Shown in pieces: positions 12,389 through 52,700 of a DNA stretch of 64,000 nucleotides. Origin of the DNA: Podarcis cretensis (Eukaryota); NCBI GenBank assembly GCA_951804945.1, contig OX638153.1, positions 64,418,001 through 64,482,000 on the forward strand, given 5' to 3'. The position numbers and the translations under genes are program-made. Under the pieces are notes generated by a model, which saw only the letters and a program-made list of their open reading frames with translations, did no database searches and was not told the origin of the DNA. How positions within the stretch are numbered: position 1 is the stretch's first letter; the number at the start of each line of letters is the position of its first letter.

Positions 12389-13102
12389 ATTGTTTGGGGA
12401 AAACTGTGACAACTTAACTGGTATAAAACAGCTTCCATACTCCTGCACAAAAGTAATCCCTAATATATTACTTTTATCTGTTTTGTCCCTGCAGTACCCC
12501 AGGACTAATGACGTGACAACCTCCATCCTCTAAATCCATGAAATATTTTGAGAGGCAGAATTGAAGAGAGGGGATGCAGATGAATACATAAAGATAATCA
12601 AACATTGAACATTTTTATTCTGCATTAAGGAATTCAGAATAGCCCCAGTTACCTGGTTCTGTATTCTTTGTCACATGTATGGTTTGCATCCCAAAATTCA
12701 TTCTGAGGAATCAAGTGCAACTGGCAGAGCAACTCCAAGCCCCTTTGTGTCTGTAAGGATGGGGAGGGGCTGGGCAAATATATCCCTCCTATAATCCCTG
12801 CCAGCCTCCATCAACCTCCCACTGACAATTGCTTGTAGTGAGACACCAGCATCACTCCACTGGTGCAGAGCTCCCTGCTTCCACCTGCTGAAAGTGTGGT
12901 CAGGCAGAAATGCCACTGGCAGGGTCCTTGCTTGCATCAGCCAGTGGAAAGATGCTAAACAGGCTTTCTGGAGCCAGTTAGGGATCCAATTTAGGCAGTG
13001 CCATATTTACTTATAAGCTAAACAAGCTGTAGCTTAGGGCCTCACTCTCTTGGGCCCCCCCCAAAAAAAAATTAAAAGAAGAAAACACATGGATGTACAT
13101 TT

Positions 13103-13896
13103 GCTTGTTCAGACCTAGAAACCTCCTCCCTAAATAAGTTCACACTTGACTCAAATTTTGATTTTGGTTTTTGGCAGAATTTAGGCCACAGCTTTATTGA
13201 TTACAGAAAGTGAGTGGTTGCATAGGCTCTGGTTTGACTAGCTCCCTGCCATGCAGGTAGCACTGACCCAGGGTTCCAGCATAGGTCAGCCAAGGGTGAA
13301 CATCTGGATAAGCGGAAAGCCGGAAACAGGCTAACTCTGCCACCCAGATGTCCCCCTGGACTCAGGCACGGGCACAAGCCCCTCTCAGGGGTTGACCAAA
13401 CCATTTGAGTCCCTGGATTCCTTTAATGGAATACCCTTCACATAGGGATGGCGAGAGTGTTCCCTCATCCCTCATCCCTATCACCTGAACCAGAGCCTAT
13501 CCACAACCTTACAAGTTGTGATGATTTGCTACGCGGTAGGCAAAACCCAAATGGCAATAGCCAATCAGCCAAGTGGGGGAAATTCCTGCCGTGCCCCTGT
13601 CCCAATGACAGATGACACACAATGGCATAGCTAGATCAAGCGCAAAGCCCTAAAAGTAGGGAGAGGTGGGCTGGTGTTCCGAATGCACGCGCTGAAAGAG
13701 GAAGCTCTGGGTCATGTGCATGAGCAAAAATAGGTCCCTCGAACCATTTGTACTGCGTCCCATTGGCCAGATAGCACCCAGCTACGAGGGACCTACCATT
13801 CGGGTGTTGTGGCTGACCAATCATACCCACCCACAACACAGGGAGTCAGTTGTCCAGGTCTCACAGCAATACATGCCCTCTTTAAGGGAGGACCCG
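13103..13896 (-). mobile_element. Non-coding 794-bp relative of the YR retrotransposon (solo A-B repeat or internally deleted copy)
   Basis: It shares GGCCACARCTTTATTGATTACAG (13184-13206 vs 44127-44149), a 22/26-identical core (13415-13440 vs 44333-44358) and promoter spacing with the 44-51 kb element. ATTT flanks both sides, and it interrupts a hAT-like host. Confidence 0.78.
13222..13500 (-). ncRNA. Predicted structured cis-RNA domain, homologous to 44168-44429
   Basis: A perfect 13-bp closing stem (13222-13234/13488-13500) with internal helices in the same order as in the autonomous element. Confidence 0.6.
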
Positions 13897-14881
13897 ATTT
13901 CCAAAATATAAGATAAAAAACAAAGAATATAAAACCTACATACAGTGTTTTCTGTTGTGTAGGCTCCTATGATGTAAGTAACTAGCCTACTCCCTAAAAT
14001 ATCTCTGGTTTGCTCATTTCTACATATAGGGTACCTACATTCTGCATGGACTGGTTGCATGGCAACATGTGCAAATGGCTTTAGATAACTATTAGGTCCA
14101 TAAATTACAATATAGCATATATTCAACACACACAAAAAACAGTGGCAATTTGTTGTTGACAAAGGACAGCTGGACATATAAAGGGCCCCATTACCTTCAG
14201 GAGCTTAGGGACTTATCAAACCTATATCCGGCCCTGAACTTAGGTTTCCATGCTATGTGTGTTGTGTGTGTGTTGAGAATGTTGGAAACTCTGAGAGGGA
14301 CCTGCTATCAAAGCAAGCCCATATCAAGAAATGTTGGGGATGAGGGGAGCTGAAATGACCTGGGTGCTATAGGGAGGTCAAGACTGAAGAACCAGAACCT
14401 AAATTTAGCTCACTTGGCAAGCTCAGCAATGCTGAACTGTGTTATTAAATATTAATACAATAAATTTTTTTTAAAAAGATTTCAAAGTGTCCTGGGTGCT
14501 TGTCAGTTTTCCCAGTGCCTCTAGAATTCTGAGCAGTCTTGCAGACCAGTAACTCAGATGACTTTAAAAGAGAATTAGACAAATCTGAAGAGGACCAGGC
14601 TGTTAGTGACAACCACGTATGATGGTTCTGTGCAGCCTACATGTTTCAGTAGAAAAATGTATCACACTACCAGTTGCTGGAGAGCAGCAATGGGAGATGG
14701 CTGCTGCCTTCCTGGGAGTTTTCTGAAGGCAGCTGTTTGGATGGTATGACAGCAGGATGCTGACTAGATAGACCTTGGGCACTTCTTTGTGTGTGTTTTT
14801 CACCCGTTTGCCAAGACAGGGAGAGATGTACCTGCATGCTTTCCTTGGTGCCTTCATAAATAAGGAGGCTAGATAGATTTA

Positions 14882-35133: not shown

Positions 35134-35512
35134 GTGGGACGCAGGTGGCGCTGTGGGTTAAAGCCTCAGCGCCTAGGGCTTGCCGATCGAAAGGTCGGCG
35201 GTTCGAATCCCTGCGGCGGGGTGCGCTCCCGCTGCTCGGTCCCAGCGCCTGCCAACCTAGCAGTTCGAAAGCACCTCCGGGTGCAAGTAGATAAATAGGG
35301 ACCGCTTACCAGCGGGAAGGTAAATGGCGTTTCCGTGTGCGGCTCTGGCTCTGGCTCTGGCTCTGGCCAGAGCAGCTTCGTCACGCTGGCCACGTGACCC
35401 AGAAGTGTCTCCAGACAGCGCTGGCCCCTGGCCTCTTAAGTGAGAGGGGCGCACAACCCCAGAGTCTGTCAAGACTGGCCCGTACGGGCAGGGGTACTTT
35501 TACCTTTACCTT
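35134..35512 (+). mobile_element. Sauria SINE, young and full length, with internal (GGCTCT)n expansion
   Basis: GGGACGCAGGTGGCGC head, B-box GGTTCGAATCC and (ACCTTT)n tail. TSD TACCATTACTATG at 35121-35133 and 35513-35525. Confidence 0.95.
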
Positions 35513-36476
35513 TACCATTACTATGAGCTTATTGTGAAGAATCTGCAAAGCAGGATTCAAAATTCGGATAGAAAAATCTGAAACTTCCCCAGTGGAATGG
35601 ATCTTGCTCTTAAAGAGTGAAAATGAAAATATTGCACCATGCAGTTTTTCTGGGTTTTTAAAACACCCTTCAATATCTGGCACCAGAGGAGCCAATATAG
35701 GCCCACTCGTTAAAGAGCTGTCTTTGGATGCTCAGAGAGAAAGCAATTATGTAACTAAAGAGATGTTTATTGCTAACTGAATGCAATGCAGACATTTGAC
35801 ATGTGGTGCCGTGGTTAGTAGGTTGGACGGGTGAAGTGATGGACATGAGGCAGGAGTTGATAATGCAGGTGAGCTGTGCACAGGTGGGCTGCATGCAAGC
35901 TGCCAGCCAGCTCTGTGGAGCCTCCTTTTTCTGACACAAATATGCTAACCAGGCAGATTCATTTTGGGCTGTGACCTTTACACATCTTCCAGTCTCGAGA
36001 TTGTGGGGTGATACAAAGTTATTTTGGCACCTGTTTCCACCGCATCATTTTCCCCTTGCACAGTGTATGACGAAGCAGACAAAAGGTCTCAGAGACAAAG
36101 GTTACAGACAGGACACCACAGGCTACTGAGACCGCAAAAGGTTAGAGAGAGGGTACGATGTTCAGACAGCTGTAGCTTTGTTTGTGAGGGGGAGGTGCCC
36201 CACACCCCAAGGTCACGCGTGCAGGCAGACTGTGGCTGCCTGCGGGTGGGGAGTGTGCTCCCTCCGGACCCCATGGTCATCCCTACAGACGGGGACTTGG
36301 GAGAGTAGGGTTCAAATCCACACTTGGCCACAAAGCTCACTAGGTGATCTTGGGTAAGTTACAGCCTTTCAGCTAAATCTACCTCACTGGGCTATTGTGA
36401 TGAAAAATATGGGGATGGAAAGAACCATGAATGCCACCTTGAGTTCCTTAGAGGGAAGCTGGGATACAAATGTATA

Positions 36477-42500: not shown

Positions 42501-44126
42501 AGCCTCACTGATGTGGTCCAAAGGAAAGCAGAGGAATAAGTTTGGCACCAGCTTGGCTGCAGGAGTTGCTGGAAGGAGGTGTACAAGGTGCCATCCAACC
42601 GTCTTAGGGACTCCACTTCAGATATGTGTACAGTTTATTCCTTAGCCTTTTCATCTCCCAAATATGTCCTTCAAGGCAACAGGTATAGATTTTTTCTCAG
42701 CGTTTACTCCTGAAGTCATTCTCATGAATGAGTATAGCCGCCAGGCAGTAGGACCAGAGTTTTCTTCTCCTAGATAGGTTACTTTCCCAGTAAATACACA
42801 AGTTAATATTTATATAAGAAAAAGATAGAGTACAAAGATAATGTGCACACACACACTTAAGTATCCTGTTATAAAATGAAACTGTTTCCATTAAGGCAGG
42901 CTGACAGAGTTTTGCTCCAAAGAAATGTCTGTTTCAAAGTCATAACCCAGTGTCCTTTGGTATGGAAATCACTCAGCTGAGGTGATAATCAACTGCTAAA
43001 GGAGCATCCCAAGCCAAGGCCTTCACCCTTTCCTTATCTTAATGGCCCATCAGTATCTTTGAAGTGGTAAACTCGGCAAGTCTCAATTCTTTAATCTTGT
43101 AAGGAACCACCACTTGGAGAATCTTTTAAGAATATTAAGTGGAGCTGAGCTTCAAAGGAAGTAGTCTCAATTCACCTGACCATGAGAGCCTTGTTAACAT
43201 TGGCTGAGGCAAAGAAATTAGAATTTTAAATTCATTCCTAGCCCCTTGAAGTTGATTGGCCCAGTACCCCAGAGGCCACCACCTCTCCTTCACTCCTATT
43301 GCCTTTGAAAAGAGACTGGGATCCCTACAGCAAGGAATCTCATGTTACTTCCAGGGGACTATCTGCCCATTTGAAAACTTGAGTATAATTGCTTAAGGCT
43401 GCGGGGTGGAGGAGGCAAAGGAATGGTGGGCGGCCAACTGATGTAGAAGCAATAAACATAGATCTGATCTCCCTTGGGCGGAAGATCCCGTCGCCTCATA
43501 TAAGAGCAGGCTAAAAATAATAAATAGTTGTGGGTTTTTATTTATTATTTAAGTAACCATAGCTCTGGCTTGTGCTAACATTCAGAGAAGTCTGTGTATA
43601 GAAGTTAGCCTTATGTTTTGATTTCCTCCTTTTTCACTTGTCCATGCTTGTTGATGCTTCCTATCTCTCTGTATGCTATCAATGAATATACAGGGCCTCA
43701 GAGAGGAATTTTATCAGGGGTATAAAGTTTATTTTGGGCTCCTTTCCTTGCCCATCAGTCATCCTGTTTTTATTCACTAAGGATTTATGCCATGAGCTCT
43801 AGCCTGTGAGATCAAAAAGGGCACTGAAGTCAAGAGGGGGTGGAATGGAGTGCTCTGTTAATTTTATGCATTTAAGGCCTTGTACTCTTATGCTCCCTCT
43901 ACGATAAATATAAATAAATATAAATAAAATAGGATCGGAGATAAGAAAGCATTTTTGACTTGAACATCATTGCTTATGCTACCAATACAGATAAGGAGAA
44001 ATAATTCACAACAAAGCATCCTTTTATATTGCAATGCAGATCAGATTGCGTGGCAATTCCCGCCCCCTCCCACAGTTGGAGAAATAAAGACACTGTACAC
44101 AGACTTTGAGGTTAATGGGCGTAAAT

Positions 44127-44149
44127 GGCCACAACTTTATTGATTACAG
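44127..44149 (-). terminator. Poly(A) signal of the YR element
   Basis: AATAAA at 44136-44141 in CTGTAATCAATAAAGTTGTGGCC, followed by GT/T-rich sequence. The same motif is at 13184-13206. Confidence 0.7.
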
Positions 44150-44167
44150 GTAAGAGCGGTATTGGCT

Positions 44168-44429
44168 TTAGGCATTGGCCCTAACAGACTATCCGGTCTA
44201 ACCGGGAAGGGATTAAAACCGCCAGGGGGAGACCCCGAGATGCACATCCGTAGGCGCTCCCCAATGGGTGGCCGCTCGGGGGCGCGCTTTAGGCCCTAGC
44301 CTCCGTAGGTTTCGGACGAGGCGACGCCCCCCGGAGTCCTTTAACGAACTACCCTTCAAGACCTGGGGGAGGTGATGGCGTCCCTCCCCCCAACTTCATT
44401 TGCATAACAATACCCCTGCCAATGCCTAA
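44168..44429 (-). ncRNA. Predicted structured cis-RNA domain in the 3' UTR of the YR element
   Basis: A perfect 12-bp closing stem (44168-44179/44418-44429) encloses several hairpins. The same topology occurs at 13222-13500. Paired by eye only. Confidence 0.62.
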
Positions 44430-44462
44430 CCGCCACACGAGCCAGGCTCGCCCCCAATACCC

Positions 44463-45029
44463 TCAGACCTGTAACCAATCCCTGATCCCCTGAAAAATGT
44501 CAGCCAGCCAAATATCATTACCGGCATCGGAAAGATGCACGCCATCCCTGCGGTAGAGTGTTTCCTTGCTGAATTGGATGCCTGGGTGCTCGCCCACCAA
44601 TTGCAGCCACTCTCCGCGCCACCGAGCGCTCCAAGAGTCTTCTGGCTCTACCCACAGCCACGGGATTAGTGGCGTCCCGCCAGCAGCGCCTTTCCAGCAA
44701 AGATGACCATATAATTGTAAGCTTTGGATATGAGGCCCTAAGCATCTCAAGATCATTGCAAATGTTCCACATCAAGTCAATCCCCTTTCTATAAGCCAGG
44801 TCATTCTCGCCCAATTGGATGACGAGTGCCTCTGGTGGTCCCTACGCTGCGATTTTATTTGATAAAGTTGGGGAGAATTCCTCCCAACGCATTCCCCGAC
44901 GTGCAATCCAAGAAACTAAAACATTGCTCGGGAGCCGGAGATCGCCACCAAAGCCCCTGGCAACCACCCGCATTCTTGCCCAATGGACGATGCTGTGTCC
45001 AAAGATCCAGATTCGTACGACACCAAGAC
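44463..45029 (-). pseudogene. SGNH/GDSL-family hydrolase ORF of the element (one stop, one frameshift)
   Basis: My translation gives RIWIFGHSIVHW (block I Ser), RRGMRW (Gly), IQLGENDL (Asn) and DGVHLS (His). There is an in-frame TAG at 44842-44844 and a frameshift near 44590-44600. There is no ATG; a splice acceptor lies at 45030-45032. Confidence 0.85.
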
Positions 45030-45093
45030 CTGAAATTAAGAGAGAGCAAGAGAACCAGGTCAGGGGGGGCAGATGGGGGCAGGGAAGGAAGCT

Positions 45094-45972
45094 TTAGCGA
45101 GATTTACGGATGTAACCCTTATATGCGTCCGACTTCCACCGCCCCAAGTCCATTATCCTTTCTGCTGGTAAACCCATATGGACTGCGGTGGTGGCTGCCC
45201 CAATGCGGAAGGAGTGAGCCGCGTACTCCCGGGATGGAAGTCCAATGTCTGTGATCGCTTTGCGCATGACCCTGGTGAACTGGTGCTTCGTCAAGCGAGA
45301 ACCATCAGCATGAATGAAAAAAGGGCCGCTCATTTTGGGTCTTACGCAAAGAAACTTTCTGGCGTCCTTGACTGGACACGGGCCAGCCTTCTGGGTGGCT
45401 TGCAGGCAAACCAGAGCCCCTCTGCCGAGCTGGTCGGTCTTTGAACTGCGGATTTTCAGGATTACCACGGAGCTGGAACAAGAAACATCCTCCAATAGAA
45501 GACCCCTGCTATTACTAACCAGCTGGTCGTCACAGACCACCTCGCCTATGCGTAAGGCACCGAAGAATGCGAAGGAAAATGCTGAGGAAAATAACCTGGC
45601 CTCGTATCTAGACCAGCAGATAACCCGGAGCTTTGAACGGATTTGCATAAGTATGTCAAAAGTTATGGGCCTTCTGCTGTCGGAACTAGGGGGCTGCGAT
45701 CTCCGCCAGCCTTCCAGCATTTTCCGCACCACAAAGTGTGCGCAAGGGTCCACTGAAAATAGAGCTTTGGAGAAGAATGATATTGCTGCGGAATGAATAT
45801 TAAGGGTTTTTGGGGCTCGCCCCAGGTCACGGAGGCACACAAGGTATTCAATAACCTCCGACTTGCGTGGGGGTCTGCCCGGTTTAAAGAGCCCTTTCTT
45901 CTGGCGAAACATTGTGAAATCTAACCAGGCCTTGTTATAAGATCTCAGGGTAGAGGGTGCGACTGCGGACAA
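45094..45972 (-). CDS. Tyrosine recombinase of the retrotransposon
   Basis: The catalytic set is intact: GALRIGE (R), SKTDQ (K), HSFRIG (HxxR), GRW and AYKGY (Y). The frame extends upstream into the RNase H end, through a TGA at 45991-45993. Confidence 0.93.
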   Translation of the reverse strand: MSAVAPSTLRSYNKAWLDFTMFRQKKGLFKPGRPPRKSEVIEYLVCLRDLGRAPKTLNIHSAAISFFSKALFSVDPCAHFVVRKMLEGWRRSQPPSSDSRRPITFDILMQIRSKLRVICWSRYEARLFSSAFSFAFFGALRIGEVVCDDQLVSNSRGLLLEDVSCSSSVVILKIRSSKTDQLGRGALVCLQATQKAGPCPVKDARKFLCVRPKMSGPFFIHADGSRLTKHQFTRVMRKAITDIGLPSREYAAHSFRIGAATTAVHMGLPAERIMDLGRWKSDAYKGYIRKSR

Positions 45973-45980
45973 TACTCCCT

Positions 45981-48354
45981 TTATTGCTTCTCATTGCCAA
46001 TATTCCAGAGGTGCTCTGGAAACGGTTGCGGCTGCAGCTGCGCATCCGGCGCCAATGAGCAAAAGCACTCCATCTGGAAACGAGACAGAGCATCCGCAAT
46101 GTTGTTATCGATACCTGGCACAAATCTAGCAGAAGCATATAGGTTTAACCGGAGGCAAGAAAGGACAAAATATCATAAGAGCGACGCTACCCTGGGCGAA
46201 CGAGAAGATTGTTTATTTAGCACGGACACCACTGCCTGGTTGTCTGTCCAAAAGCAAACCCTGCGGTCTTTGAACTGCTCGGCCCAAAGATGGATTGCAA
46301 CCACAATGGGGAAGAATTCTAAGAATGTTAAATCGCGAAGTATGGGTTTTTCCTGCCATGCGGGGGGCCATCGCTGAGCACACCACTGCCCTCTAAAATA
46401 GACACCAAAACCCAGGGAGCCGGCTGCGTCTGAATGCACCTGAAAGTCAGACTGCAGGGCCAAGGTATCTTGCCAGAGAGAGATTCCATTATAGCCATCT
46501 AAAAATTGGAGCCAAATCTGGAGATCCGACTTTACGGCTTTTGAAAGGTGTACCCTGTGATGAGGTGACCTAAGTCCCGTGGACAGTTTCGCCAGTCGAC
46601 CGCAAAAAGGGCGACTGGGGGAAACCACCCGGCACGCGAAGTTAAGGTGACCCAGGAGTGATTGAATTTGTCTCAGGGTGATTTTCCACAACGGCACAAG
46701 CTGAGAAATAAGGTCTTTTAAGGCAACCAGCTTCACAGAGGGCAGACGGGATGTTTGGGCAACTGTGTCCAACTCGATGCCTAGGTAAGTCAATGAAGTG
46801 ACCGGACCCTCCGTCTTTTCATTAGCCAAATGAACGCCCAGCTCCTCGGCCATGGACATGAAAGCCTGGAGCAAAGCCTTGCAGCTATCGGCATTACTTG
46901 CAACCAAAATAAAAAGGTAAAGGTAAAGGTACCCCTGCCCGTACGGGCCAGTCTTGACAGACTCTGGGGTTGTGCGCCCATCTCACTTAAGAGGCCAGGG
47001 GCCAGCGCTGTCCGGAGACACTTCCGGGTCACGTGGCCAGCGTGACATCGCTGCTCTGGCGAGCCAGAGCCGCACACGGAAACGCCGTTTACCTTCCCGC
47101 TGGTAAGCGGTCCCTATTTATCTACTTGCACCCGGAGGTGCTTTCGAACTGCTAGGTTGGCAGGCGCTGGGACCGAGCAGTGGGAGCGCACCCCGCCGCA
47201 GGGATTCGAACCGCCGACCTTTCGATCGGCAAGCCCTAGGCGCTGAGGCTTTAACCCACAGCGCCACCTGCGTCCCTAACCAAAATAAAGTCGTCCAAAT
47301 AATGCCCGACCCCCTCCGAGCCAGTTTTTTCTTTTAGCGCCCATTCGAGGAAGGTACTAAATGTATCGAAGGCGGCGCAAGCGATGGAACACCCCATAGG
47401 CATAGCCTTATCAATGAAGTAAGACCCTTGGAATTTAAAGCCTAGCCAACGATAGTCCTCCGGGTGAACTGGGAGGAGGCGAAATGCTGATTCTATGTCG
47501 CATTTTGCCAGGAAAGCACCCCTAACGAAAGCTCGAACCAACTTTACGGCTTGATCAAAAGAAGCATACTTCACCGTGCACAGTTCTTGGGGAATGGCAT
47601 CATTAACTGAGGCACCTTTAGGGTAAGACAGGTTGTGTATCAACCTGAATTCACCAGGCGCCTTTTTTGGGACAATACCAAGTGGTGAGATATGGAGCTG
47701 ACCAATGGGGGGTGCTGTAAATGGACCAGCTACTCTCCCCGCCAGAATCTCCTTCTGAATCTTTTTCCAGGCAATGTCGGGTCTCTCTAGGACCGACTTC
47801 TGATTGGGGGGGCAGCCGGTATTTGGGGTAAATACCACTGGGATTCTGAAACCTTGGGAAAACCCTTCCCCAAGGAGAAGGGCGGCCTGTCTATTGGGGT
47901 ATTGATCTAACAGGGTTCTTAGGGGTTGAAGCTTAATCGGTGAGCGGGCTAAATCAAGGGACAAGTTAGTAGCGATTCCCAGCTGCCCCTTGGGCGGGTC
48001 CTGAAGCACCAGAGGGGGCACCCCGGTTTCCCTGGTATGGGTGCCCCCTGCCGCCACGAAAGGGCTGTTGTTTTCCCTTATGGCAGTTAACAGCCGAGTG
48101 GTTGCCCGAACACTTGTCGCATTCGTGCAAGTACTTACAAGAAGTGCGCTGGCAGGCCCCTCTATTGAAGTCCCAGCATTGCCTACGGCGTTTTGAGTCA
48201 ATCTTACCAGACTTAGCTTGGTCATGTGATTTCTTTTCGATATTCGGCCCCACATGCTCCATCCAGTAGTTATTGTCTCTCTGATCCCAACGTGTGGAGG
48301 ACTGCAGCGAGGCATTCCTGCGAAAGTCCTCGTCGTACGAGATGGCGGCCTCAT
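45981..48354 (-). pseudogene. Reverse transcriptase / RNase H (pol), disrupted
   Basis: RT motifs ISPLGIVPKK..FRLIHNLS, KCDIESAFRLLP, MPMGC and YLDDF. RNase H motifs HSDAAG, FLEFFP, WTDN and NNIADALSR. Removing the SINE (46914-47277) plus one TSD restores YLDDFILV-ASNADSC in frame. A premature TGA lies at 46173-46175 and the natural TAA at 45981-45983. The frame overlaps the gag 3' end. Confidence 0.92.
46914..47277 (-). mobile_element. Sauria SINE, young and full length, inserted in the RT
   Basis: 5' GGGACGCAGGTGGCGCTGTGGGTTAAA head and (ACCTTT)n tail. 12-bp TSD AACCAAAATAAA at 46902-46913 and 47278-47289. Confidence 0.95.
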
Positions 48355-49468
48355 CCCCTGCTAATTCCTGAGCCCTTCTTACTTGCGCCAGGTAAGATGC
48401 AAGGTGAAAACCACGTTTTGGATAACAACCTGCCACTATACCCATGGATACCTGGTAGCCATTGAGCCAATTCTCAAATGTCCGTTCAGCCCGCGGGGAC
48501 CTATATCTTTTCTTACCATAATACCATTTCTTCTCTCCTTTCCCCTTCATTTGTGCCGGCGGTAGCAGGGTGAACATGTCTACGAAATCCCCGTTCAAGA
48601 TCTTATCCCTCTTTCTCTTAGATAGGTGATTACCCAGAATAAAGTCAGTGGACAAGTGAGTTGAGACTTTAACATCTTCAACTAACGCCCCATCCTTCCA
48701 CTCCAGGGTACCATTAAAGGTTTGCCTGTGGGAATTGGCCCGCCTCTCATGCACCCACAAAGGAACACCAGTCTCTTCACCCTCACCCCAATACGTCTCC
48801 ATGGGAGCATCACTATCGCTCTCTGACGAAGAAGTACCTGTGTCATTGTCTGAGTCAGATGGATCACTTCTCCTGCTCTTCTTGGACACATGTTTCTTCT
48901 TCGCTTTTCGCTTCCCTCCGTTGGTCTTGTTGACTTGCGGTGCTGGGTCATTGTCAGCTGGAGCTGGCTGCTGGGGAGGTATCTCCTCATCTGAGGACGA
49001 CCCTTCCGAAGGACACTGCTGGGCTGGAAAATCCTGGAAAACACTAGGTATACCAATTTGCTGTTGGTTAGAATTAAGGGGGGCCGCCTGCGGTGCACTG
49101 GGTTTATGCCCGGAGGCCTTAGACTTTTGGGCACCGGACCTGGCCTTCCGCGCTGTAGGTTTGGACTTCTGTGCGTGTGCAGTTTGAGACCGAGTCAGAG
49201 GCCGGTTGGGCTGCCCCCTACCTTGATGGGACGTGCCCACTGTTGCTGTGGAGGGTACAGCCTGGCCCTGTTGGCTGGGAGGAGTGTCTGGAATGCAGTC
49301 CTGAGAAACCTCCACTATATTGGGATTCGGGGCAACAGGCGCGCTGCATTGTGCGTAAAAGGTTTGGATCGCTGAGAAAAATTGTGCCAAGGCCTGAGGA
49401 TTGCAGGGAGCAACAGGCATAAGTGTGCCACTCGATTGTGGCAATCGGGGATTGCCCCTGTTCGCCAT
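47966..49468 (-). CDS. Gag-like ORF1 of the YR retrotransposon, 500 aa
   Basis: Uninterrupted ORF with a low-complexity N-half, a basic patch (KRKAKKKHVSKKSRR), an 'ILNGDFVDMFTLL' block and a C-terminal Cys/His finger CWDFNRGACQRTSCKYLHECDKCSGNHSAVNCH, as seen in DIRS/Ngaro Gags. Confidence 0.88.
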   Translation of the reverse strand: MANRGNPRLPQSSGTLMPVAPCNPQALAQFFSAIQTFYAQCSAPVAPNPNIVEVSQDCIPDTPPSQQGQAVPSTATVGTSHQGRGQPNRPLTRSQTAHAQKSKPTARKARSGAQKSKASGHKPSAPQAAPLNSNQQQIGIPSVFQDFPAQQCPSEGSSSDEEIPPQQPAPADNDPAPQVNKTNGGKRKAKKKHVSKKSRRSDPSDSDNDTGTSSSESDSDAPMETYWGEGEETGVPLWVHERRANSHRQTFNGTLEWKDGALVEDVKVSTHLSTDFILGNHLSKRKRDKILNGDFVDMFTLLPPAQMKGKGEKKWYYGKKRYRSPRAERTFENWLNGYQVSMGIVAGCYPKRGFHLASYLAQVRRAQELAGDEAAISYDEDFRRNASLQSSTRWDQRDNNYWMEHVGPNIEKKSHDQAKSGKIDSKRRRQCWDFNRGACQRTSCKYLHECDKCSGNHSAVNCHKGKQQPFRGGRGHPYQGNRGAPSGASGPAQGAAGNRY

Positions 49469-49577
49469 GATGTCAATTGGAGAAAAGTGGGACCGACTGA
49501 GTAAGTATGACTATGAAACCTTGGTAAATCTGACCAATTAGGTTAACTGTGAATGAGTCAGCTCTTTCAGTTTACAA

Positions 49578-49738
49578 NNNNNNNNNNNNNNNNNNNNNNN
49601 NNNNNNNNNNNNNNNNNNNNNNNNNNNNNNNNNNNNNNNNNNNNNNNNNNNNNNNNNNNNNNNNNNNNNNNNNNNNNNNNNNNNNNNNNNNNNNNNNNNN
49701 NNNNNNNNNNNNNNNNNNNNNNNNNNNNNNNNNNNNNN
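49578..49738. other. Assembly gap (N run) in the YR element 5' leader
   Basis: 161 Ns. Confidence 1.
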
Positions 49739-50976
49739 TTATAAGCAACGTGGTATCTGTTTAACAATCAAGGCAAGAGACCGCTCCGAATAGCCCCGAA
49801 ACAATTAAACAATCCAGGAAGCCGACAGGGGAAAAACTTGAAAGAGAGGGGGGCAAGCGGCAAGTGGGTTAAAATGAGTGATTAGCCGGTAGCTTCCACC
49901 ACCACAGAGCACCTTTAAATTAGAACACTCTCTAAATCACTGTTAAATTACCCCTGAGCTAAATTAGAATTAAAATTAATGGTGTTAATGATGGTCGCGG
50001 ACCCTAAATGAAAGGGGCTGCCGCCTATGGAAGGGGGTACCTAAGCGCTGATACCAGGCAGCGAACCTCCAGCCTCCGCTGTTGTGTAAATTAAAACAGT
50101 GAGCAAGAACTGGACACAAGAAAGCCTAGTTCCCACGTGGCTTGCCTCACCCAAAATGGCTGCCGCCGCAAGACCACGTGGTCACCCAAAATGGCTGCCG
50201 AAGGCTGTCTCGTTGTTTAGCAACGCCACACAAAGACGCAGCAGCAGCCCTTAGGCGGTGAAAACCGGGAAAACCCAAAACAAACTGCTCTCACAATACA
50301 ATAAGCCCAAGTACTAAGCGTGCTGAGAAAAACCAAAACCTACTAAAGGGCACTGAGCGTCAAAGATGTGGCAGCAGGGAAAATGCAGGAAAATAACCAC
50401 CCCACAAGCAAGGAACCCGCGTGCTCCAGCGATCAGCGGCTGAACCCCCCAACAGAATCAATCGCAATTAGCCAGATACAACCTGATCCGAAGCGTAGCC
50501 ACGAGGCCAGCGAGAAGGAGGAAAAAGGGGGGGGAGGCTGCGCAGGAAGCGACCAGCTGGCCAGCGGGGTGAACGCGAGGCCAGGTAGCGCTGCCGCCTT
50601 CGGGTGGCTCACTCTGCCGCGGAGGGTTATCAGAAGCAAACGAAGAAAAGCTGGAGCCTGCCCCGATCCGTGGGCGAGGCGGGAAGTCGGCTGCGTAGCT
50701 AGGGGATGGGCTGCGGTCCTGCCAGTCAGCGTCTTGTCCAAAATACTCCGGGGAAATTCAGCGGCGCTGGAAAGAAGACTAGCTCCGCTCAGAAGCAGTA
50801 GCTCGATAAGTCACACGAACAGGAGAAACGATCATGCAAAGCGATCCCGCGAAACGATCCTGCAAAAACGCAATTCAAAAGGGAGAAGCAAGCACGAGGT
50901 AACAGCAAACAAACCCAATACAAATCAAAACGTGAGGGTGAGCCAGCAGCTGCTAAAAACTGCAGCTGCTGAGAGA

Positions 50977-51050
50977 GAAAGAGGGTGAGCCGGGGCTGCC
51001 CTGACCTTAAGAGGAACCCGGTAAGCCCGCCCCCTGCGCCAGCCGATTGG
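50977..51050 (-). promoter_or_regulatory. Putative Pol II promoter of the YR element
   Basis: On the minus strand: CCAAT (51046-51050), GC box GGGGCGGG, TATA-like CTTAAG (~51006-51011), then the pyrimidine initiator-like CCTCTTTC (50977-50984). The CCAAT-to-initiator spacing is mirrored at 13694-13766. Confidence 0.6.
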
Positions 51051-52700
51051 CTAGCACCGAGGGAGATGAATAAACATGAAAAGGGGAATCCCGGTGTCCC
51101 CGCGGGGCTGACGCCGGCCCCGCGAGATTGTAGTTGGGGGCGTGAGTCCCGCAACCCCACCCCCTCTTAAATTCGGTAGTGGCTTTGTCAGAAGACATTA
51201 GTATTAGTATTAGTAAAAAAAAAAAGGAGATAAACTTACTATTTGCTTTTTAAAAAGAGCTTTTCTGGCCTTTTTTTGGAGAGAAAATGAATCATAGCAT
51301 GAAAATTAATTGCTTTGGCAATGTTTGATTCAATACTTAGCCTGGCCAGATCCACAAGATGTTTTTGAGACATGGTGAACTTTAAACAACTCTTAATTAG
51401 CTTAAGGTTTGCAAACTGACCTCTCTCTAGAAACTACCATTGCTGGAATTGTTAATAGTGTTCCTAAACTAACACAAACATTTGGAAACAGGTCACTGAG
51501 CCTGTACTTTGTTAACAAGTTGGCTTTAATTGTGCATTTACAAAATTTGCTTTGTGTACTGGGGGTAAATGTTGCATTTCTTTTCCAAAATTATCACCAT
51601 TAAGGTCAGCAGGATATTTCTTTGATAAAGTTTTTCTCTCCGTATCATTTTTGGACATGGTGAGATTTTTCTACAGTTTTTCTGCCAACTCCTTAACAGC
51701 ATTGAAGCGGACAGATGAATAATTATCCAGTCTTCTATTCACAGTATTAATAAAGTAAAGCACTATGAATTATCTTAGGTGTGTGGGGGATTGGTTGAGC
51801 AGTTTTTCTTCTTTTTTGCTTTTATTATACCTTTACAAATATGATTTGAATCAATGCAAATATTAACTCTCTCCTAATTCTTAGGAGAGTTGTTTGGAAA
51901 AGATAATTTTACCTCATGTAGTAAATTCTTCATCTGTTCATGATGATAATGGTGGAAATGAGCTATTTTCATACAGGAATTTTCTCAGTTCAGCTCTTGT
52001 TTGGTTGTCCCTGTCCCCTTCTCTATATACTGCACGTGTTTGCTATGTATTCTGTATCTTATTTCAGTTCATGTTATGGAGTTTTCTTCAAGTTTATCTT
52101 GTTTTTAACGGGTGTGTGTGGCTGTACAGCAAACTCTTGATTTGACTTTGATATCCCTGTATTTCAAAAATGTATATTCCACTTTTCGAGATAAACCATT
52201 CCCAAGGTGGCTCACAGTATAACGACAACACTAATAGCAGAATTACCTGATGTTTCTGACAAAGTGAATCCTCCAAATCTTATGCCATAATACATCTGTT
52301 AGTCTTTAAGATGCTACAAAGCTCCGTTGTTTTTACTACAACAGCCTAGCATAGCTTCGATTTGGAGCTGTGAGGGGAAAAAGAGAAGAACCATGACACA
52401 CGGATCTCAAAGGCAGGAGACATGCAAGGCTACAGAATGGGGATGCAGCAAGCTCCTCAGATCTGGCTGTTTTTGTGATGTATGAGCAAAACATAAAGGA
52501 CACTCCTCTGAATGATTTTCTCCCCTTGAAGGAGAAATCTCTTCTCTTGCCTGATTAAATGCTTGTGGAGTTCCTTTTGGCAACTGCAGGGTCCAGCTCT
52601 TCTCCTGATCCTGTCACCCTGCTCTTGGGAGCCATTCGTATTCAGATTATTCAAGTTGGTCACCATTTTCTGTTCCTCATTTGTATTTCAGTGCCCTAAC

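Follow-up and report, generated by a model that had tools for sequence, protein, structure and literature searches.

A solo A-spacer-B unit of an old Ngaro retrotransposon family in the genome of Podarcis cretensis

Introduction

Solo LTRs are gene-less promoter-and-terminator blocks left at an insertion site, and the long copies persist where recombination is low. Solo AB units of split-repeat retrotransposons are already in print, from Cafeteria and as SIRE. In Cafeteria burkhardae, isolated A-B units are described amid Ngaro elements of the order A1-ORFs-B1A2B2, and the authors invoke recombination between the 5′ and 3′ repeats and compare the units to solo LTRs (PMC8547959). SIRE of Trypanosoma cruzi corresponds to the A2-B2 region of VIPER plus a short unique part, and its authors left its origin and mobility open (PMC6681497). 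The Ngaro elements of Xenopus are described as having split direct repeats and ORFs for gag, RT/RH, tyrosine recombinase (YR) and an SGNH hydrolase, with an A repeat of 236 bp and a B repeat of 152 bp, and many of their copies have lost part of the repeats; the word "solo" is absent from the text of that report as available (bioRxiv 2021.08.05.455354). The structural classes of such elements are set out elsewhere (PMC4157794). The replication of split-repeat retrotransposons has been modelled and little tested. In addition, solo units resemble orphan LTRs, and there is a risk that repeat libraries misfile them.

The unit reported here lies in a 64,000-nucleotide stretch of Podarcis cretensis DNA (the window). 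It differs from the Cafeteria units in its vertebrate host, in the ~1,100 copies left by one family, and in the unique spacer between A and B; the reciprocal A-ORFs-B product was also counted here. VIPER belongs to a separate kinetoplastid clade, and the unique part of SIRE is ~30 bp compared with 169 bp here. Relative to Xenopus Ngaro, compared by description only, repeat B is ~400 bp instead of 152 bp. Unlike solo LTRs, the unit has no TG...CA ends and no target duplication, its junction is of the recombinase type, and there are two alternative deletion products.

Results and Discussion

Ends and insertion site of the unit

A preliminary description had placed a piece without ORFs at 13103-13896 and read it as a probable solo A-B footprint of an Ngaro element or, alternatively, as a non-autonomous Ngaro-type element. 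The piece is real and free of ORFs, the longest stop-free stretch in six frames being 73 codons; its true ends were found to lie two bases further out on each side. Comparison of the 41 copies that have both ends intact showed near-invariance at the two bases adjoining each end and independent variation at the outer two, which places the element at 13101-13898 without a true target duplication. A 4-bp target duplication fits the site in the window alone and fails for the family, in which the flanking 4-mers were identical in only 5 of the 41 copies.

13101-13898, reverse strand: solo A-spacer-B unit, 798 bp including two junction bases at each end, delimited by shared ends, flanks and a match on contig C19
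12996-14236, no strand assigned: host MITE, 443 bp without the insert, with short terminal inverted repeats and an 8-bp flanking repeat at 12988-12995 and 14237-14244

The 8-bp repeat flanking the host carries one mismatch. From the terminal inverted repeats and this flanking repeat, judged by the usual rules for such families, we take the host to be a probable hAT-type MITE. A genome search with the host returned 2486 candidates, of which 40 were scored, and comparison with its empty site, as had been proposed, showed a single occurrence of the junction 4-mer there in 14 of 14 MITE copies. At the locus, the contigs assembled from four public sequencing runs are interrupted within the host MITE, with one run spanning the left junction. 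The site would fit an insertion by exchange between the junction motif and a similar motif in the target, by analogy with the exchange described for DIRS elements (PMC7192593).

Gene-bearing relatives and family assignment

The tail-to-head B|A pattern had one match genome-wide, a split-repeat relic on contig C19 with the order A1 (225 bp), RT/RH remnant, start of the YR, B1 (~400 bp) and a whole unit at 87%. When the RT of this relic was used as a query, 19 further loci were detected (78-88%), 18 of which had the unit's A and/or B beside remnants of gag, RT/RH, YR or hydrolase; the A2-spacer-B2 block was absent from the 10 kb around each of these 18 loci. Gene remnants between A and B were identified by tblastn in L105, L107, L109 and others. 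In an old Ngaro family of tyrosine-recombinase retrotransposons, the unit constitutes the 3′ block, A2-spacer-B2, and we have hardly any doubt that the feature is real and is an Ngaro solo end block. The earlier reading thus held in that A and B flank gene remnants elsewhere and that the C19 relic has the unit as its 3′ block; the plain A-B structure did not, as 169 bp between the repeats belong to neither.

13672-13898, reverse strand: repeat A, promoter-like, ~225 bp; matches A1 upstream of gag/RT (L105, L107, L109-L111 and others)
13503-13671, reverse strand: spacer M, 169 bp; confined to the A2-B2 interval, with blocks conserved between families
13101-13502, reverse strand: repeat B, ~400 bp; matches B1 right after the hydrolase ORF (L104, L105, L107, L109, L118, L120 and others)
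44046-51186, reverse strand: Ngaro element of another family, A-gag-RT/RH-YR-hydrolase-B, without the A2-spacer-B2 block; a SINE lies near 46913-47276

Pfam matches to RVT_1 and Phage_integrase were obtained in the 44-51 kb element and in L073, the closest intact relative (69% over 556 bp between the unit and the L073 3′ block), the integrase matches falling below the curated cut-off. L073 has RT, YR and GDSL/SGNH matches (Lipase_GDSL_2, E-value 2 × 10−5, below cut-off), and hydrolase remnants homologous to its own stand before B1 in the parent family. No methyltransferase domain was detected in the four ORFs of L073 (Pfam, E-value 0.1), within the limits of Pfam sensitivity. This domain set matches Ngaro as described for Xenopus. 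A PAT-like element in the DIRS order was also considered and rejected: the split repeats are present, but L073 has the hydrolase instead of a methyltransferase. Overall, the assignment to Ngaro is based on (i) split direct repeats, seen in the C19 relic and in 19 of 40 YR loci of related families that keep the 3′ block; (ii) gag-like, RT, RH and YR remnants in the parent, with a hydrolase after the YR; and (iii) a recombinase-type insertion.

With its promoter-like 5′ part and polyadenylation signal the unit is LTR-like; nonetheless, we regard it as extremely improbable that it is the solo LTR of a Gypsy element or an endogenous retrovirus. It has no TG...CA ends, its flanking 4-mers are seldom identical, and A and B occur separately around the remnants of RT/RH, tyrosine recombinase and hydrolase. 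Moreover, the whole unit is not repeated, as 30 loci that share both unit ends had one match each within 1.5-kb flanks. Paired TG...CA LTRs around an integrase, named at the outset as the contrary case, were not found.

Sequence signals in the unit

Several predicted signals were located in A and B, and their positions were compared with those of young elements of related families.

13762-13766, reverse strand: CCAAT box-like motif, putative; in 12 of 13 young elements it falls between unit positions 105 and 141
13725-13732, reverse strand: TATA-like motif of putative function, ~30 bp upstream of the pyrimidine tract; has counterparts in young families
13694-13701, reverse strand: CCTCTTTC tract, putative start of transcription; in most truncated young copies, A meets other DNA at unit positions 194-220
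13411-13440, reverse strand: short conserved stem-loop in B, from comparison across 15 sequences
13193-13198, reverse strand: AATAAA, predicted polyadenylation signal; at a like place in 13 young elements

The geometry shared by the unit and the 7-kb element at 44-51 kb, on which the preliminary description had relied, was largely reproduced. The CCAAT-to-CCTCTTTC distances are 61 and 62 bp, or 65 and 66 from start to start (CCAAT at 13766 and 51050, CCTCTTTC at 13701 and 50984); the distance from CCTCTTTC to the 5′ end measured 195 and 202 bp, where 195 and 203 had been given; AATAAA (13198 and 44141) is 88-90 bp away from each 3′ end; and the TTAA(A)GAGGG motif is found in both. As had also been stated, the two belong to different families, since only two short matches were found by BLAST: 23 bp around AATAAA (E-value 5 × 10−5) and 30 bp at 13411-13440 (E-value 0.002). 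The latter corresponds to the stem-loop in B, for which double changes were found in 5 of 11 pairs among the 15 sequences, a measure reached by 28 of 500 shuffles; the covariation score was reached by 0 of 500. There is thus modest support for a predicted stem conserved across these sequences. When folded as a single sequence, 13420-13520 gave a weak structure (z −1.83).

In 12 of 14 truncated young copies, A was joined to other DNA at unit positions 194-220 (L131, L134, L137, L145, L149, L156, L162, L171, L129, L141, L166 and L167). These joins just past the pyrimidine tract would be consistent with an incomplete cDNA switching to the A2 end. Spacer M, whose length in 13 young elements is 156-204 bp when taken from the repeat bounds, contains near-invariant blocks and a predicted long stem (12 families), with few compensatory changes (4 of 27 pairs). 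From these features it is a candidate packaging or priming signal.

Predicted hairpin at the B|A junction

The B1|A2 junctions of 12 families were aligned for fold analysis. The predicted fold encloses an inner stem within A and is closed by pairing between A positions ~35-45 and the end of B.

13852-13896, reverse strand: A half of the junction hairpin, including the TTAAAGAGGG motif; covarying stem at the B1|A2 junctions of 12 families, putative role

Double changes were found in 10 of 17 pairs, with a covariation score reached by 0 of 500 shuffles, and 92.6% of cells pair compared with 43-57% in slid controls, these controls being inflated by the relatedness of the junction sequences and by the use of the same sequences to derive the structure. 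The crossover sits in one arm of the hairpin, away from its centre of symmetry; in 11 of 12 families, the better fold is that of the sense strand. The fold resembles integron attC sites as these are described, a likeness that we offer as a lead. The cDNA of DIRS-1 is reported to be linear and single-stranded (PMC7192593). Both halves of the stem lie outside the predicted transcript of the solo, which could therefore not rebuild the junction alone; with the hairpin halves at its opposite ends, the solo is predicted to be a dead end.

The 7-kb element and young families

The element at 44046-51186 encodes gag-like, RT, YR and hydrolase-like frames and has A and B once each, with no internal repeat of either. 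It is the reciprocal A-ORFs-B form. The SINE at 46913-47276 is 95-99% identical to an inverted copy at 35136-35513, 11.5 kb away, and is therefore a young insertion in this element; the SINEs of this DNA are presumably of Sauria type.

Genome-wide, 1552 YR candidates were detected, and most of the 132 that were scored had no stop inside the match. These matches represent many families (55-93% identity), several of them with identical copies, and we conclude from the stop-free and identical matches that Ngaro elements were active recently. To sample the young state, 40 YR loci were picked from the 132. The 3′ block was lacking in 21 of these, the form seen at 44046-51186. Young elements have an A of 200-233 bp and a B of 367-463 bp, with repeats that are mostly 100% identical, and their units of 763-852 bp have the same geometry as that in the window. 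Differences between A1 and A2 and between B1 and B2 could not be used to map transcript ends, the copies being nearly identical.

Both reciprocal products exist among very young copies, as shown by (i) L043, which lacks the block yet is 99.96% identical to the full element L042; and (ii) three solos identical to the block of L155, a gene-less mini element. Many young families hold all forms side by side (full elements, gene-less minis, A-ORFs-B and solos), so that the question of origin, which the SIRE authors call open, can be tested. Classification of all A starts in two young families (29 and 26 sites) found the 3′ block in 17 elements; 13 copies are solos, 7 have the form A-x-B and 5 are fragments of A only. 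The equimolar split of a circle with two junctions had appeared plausible at a first count of 13:13, and was rejected when the reclassification of the 5 A-only fragments and 1 deleted split-repeat copy changed this to 13 solos versus 7 A-x-B.

The gene-less minis (L155/L156, L171/L172, L130/L131 and L234) are 1.4-2 kb long and keep the layout A1-B1-A2-spacer-B2. Their breakpoints differ from one another, and amplification was evident for none of them. They are better candidates than the solos for true non-autonomous elements.

Copy number, distribution and subfamilies of the old family

A genome search with the unit, as the preliminary description had suggested for copy number and shared ends, returned 2998 candidates, of which 39 were scored besides the copy in the window; these were 89-92% identical and nearly full length, and the shared ends were those of the 30 loci noted above. 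Exact patterns counted genome-wide gave 239 A starts, 422 B ends and 578 spacer|B boundaries. By recapture on contigs C1 and C2 (15 of 28 and 30 of 59), the copy number is ~1,100, and a single old family has thus left ~1,100 promoter-like blocks in the genome. The spacer was present in 54 of 56 distinct loci found by end patterns. On the gene side, 37 hydrolase|B boundaries were found compared with the 578 spacer|B boundaries at similar detection rates, and ~1,100 solo copies stand against an estimated ~70 gene-side B ends.

The gene-side copies were found to be clustered. Nine of the 37 in the old family are on contig C19 (P = 3 × 10−6); 14 of 23 on contigs C1-C11 lie within 7 Mb of a contig end, compared with 4 of 72 solo sites on C1-C2; and RT-bearing copies are near contig ends in 10 of 16 cases, compared with 4 of 88 solos (P = 2 × 10−7). 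Near contig ends, the solo:B1 ratio is by hand estimate ~2-4:1, close to that of the young families.

An alignment of 69 units (68 solos and the C19 block, drawn from the ~1,100 copies and from loci without large indels) gave three groups, two with support of 100/99 and one an unresolved star of 50. Each subfamily matches A1 and B1 of gene-bearing relics, and divergence within subfamilies (~0.08-0.13) is similar in the solos and their gene-bearing relics. In 67 of the 69 units, the haplotype agreed across A, M and B; the two mosaics are L089, in which the ends of one subfamily surround the 3′ middle of another, and L093.

We consider it improbable, in light of these data, that the unit is a self-propagating non-autonomous family with its own promoter, packaged through the spacer and supplied with ends from the B1|A2 junction of a helper. 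The promoter-like motifs, spacer and AATAAA are all kept, solos far outnumber gene-side B ends, the L089 mosaic is of the kind such a family could yield, and the question of mobility was likewise left open for SIRE (PMC6681497). However, the unit has no junction template of its own, the sole tail-to-head match being the split-repeat relic, and the solos are no younger than the gene-bearing relics of their own subfamily. Large deletions with identical breakpoints were shared by at most two solos, the largest subfamily is the star of 50 rows, and the excess of copies drops near contig ends. The non-mosaic state of 67 of the 69 units also counts against self-propagation, an argument that loses force if the subfamilies differed in their periods of activity. 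The 578:37 ratio had been taken as an argument for self-propagation and was weakened by the clustering of the gene-side copies: as the survivors are clustered and the ratio in young families is only 13:7, selective loss of long copies can explain the solo excess, and self-propagation is not needed for it.

In subfamily t2 (L107, L111, L122 and the t2 solos), the end variants are those of t3 and the middle is that of t1, and t2 may be a recombinant master. This chimerism was considered as a solo-specific trait and rejected as such, since gene-bearing t2 relics show the same.

Origin of the solo units

We lean towards the view that the solo was left by a deletion between A1 and A2 that removed the genes of an inserted full element. 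The parent would be transcribed from A1 to B2, with the internal B1|A2 junction restoring the missing ends, and the tyrosine recombinase would connect the junction 4-mer with a target 4-mer resembling it. In the inserted element, A1 × A2 deletion would give the solo unit and B1 × B2 deletion the A-ORFs-B copies, such as that at 44-51 kb. The long products were likely purged except in refuge regions, where recombination is assumed to be low, and solos would now dominate as a result. Consistent with this sequence of events, block-bearing copies fall with family age: 17 stand against 7 A-x-B in the young families, and B1 was followed by A2 at 0 of 30 old B1 sites, one of the 30 having no match to the unit. 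We read these data, with the clustering of the gene-side copies, as resolution of split-repeat copies over time together with loss of long copies outside the refuges. The counts of A-ORFs-B forms come from an assembly of 51 contigs, in which collapse of near-tandem B copies could mimic such forms.

Several observations count against the deletion view. No site was seen in both the full and the solo state. Repeat A (225 bp, ~7 kb apart) is expected to be a poorer slippage substrate than B (400 bp, ~390 bp apart), but even the young families have yielded more solos than A-x-B copies (13 vs 7). L089 and L093 are mosaic, and the spacer shows strong conservation and forms part of the predicted short transcript. 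No measurable excess in age over full copies was seen for the young solos (P = 0.21 and 0.65, small n), and reading frames are intact in 10 of 21 copies without the block compared with 14 of 19 with it, a difference that is not significant (P = 0.12). Furthermore, the old family has proportionally fewer short A-x-B forms (2 of 56) than the young families (4, vs 13 solos; P = 0.02); such forms would be expected to escape selection on length, and their scarcity in the old family exceeds what length explains.

The results on age, reading frames and short A-x-B forms leave direct insertion of a short cDNA circle as a serious rival, which we hold to be possible though not the expected outcome. Here, the solos would be replication by-products: reverse transcription would copy B2, spacer, A2 and B1 first, the two copies of B would close the circle early, and the resulting A-spacer-B circle, with a complete junction, would be integrated at a new site by the recombinase. 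Twelve of 13 young solos have 0-4 private changes, like full copies, and the many 5′-truncated young copies joined to A past the predicted start suggest that aberrant cDNAs were often integrated. No gene leader followed A at any of 15 junction-bearing sites in young families, and no permuted A-spacer-B-A-ORFs-B element was found there. A circle with two identical junctions would give a permuted element half the time, and the lack of permuted elements makes a circle with two equal junctions unlikely as an intermediate; the internal junction, unused in full-length circles, might serve short ones only. The scarcity of short A-x-B forms in the old family also favours direct insertion. Against it, old split-repeat copies are almost gone even in the refuges, which indicates that recombination after insertion is efficient; the similar solo:B1 ratios near contig ends and in young families can be explained by one deletion process; and neither the circle nor its cDNA was observed.

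A broader and rather doubtful proposal is that Ngaro end blocks integrate directly in general, with a folded single-strand B|A junction acting in the manner of attC and early closure yielding the gene-less circle. If this were true, solo AB units and SIRE would be replication by-products and not recombination scars, and the lack of permuted elements would reflect a rule governing which junction is used.

Contig C19 makes up 3.4% of the assembly, and on it lie both 9 of the 37 gene-side copies of the old family and the sole split-repeat relic detected for that family. This contig is possibly a sex chromosome that does not recombine.
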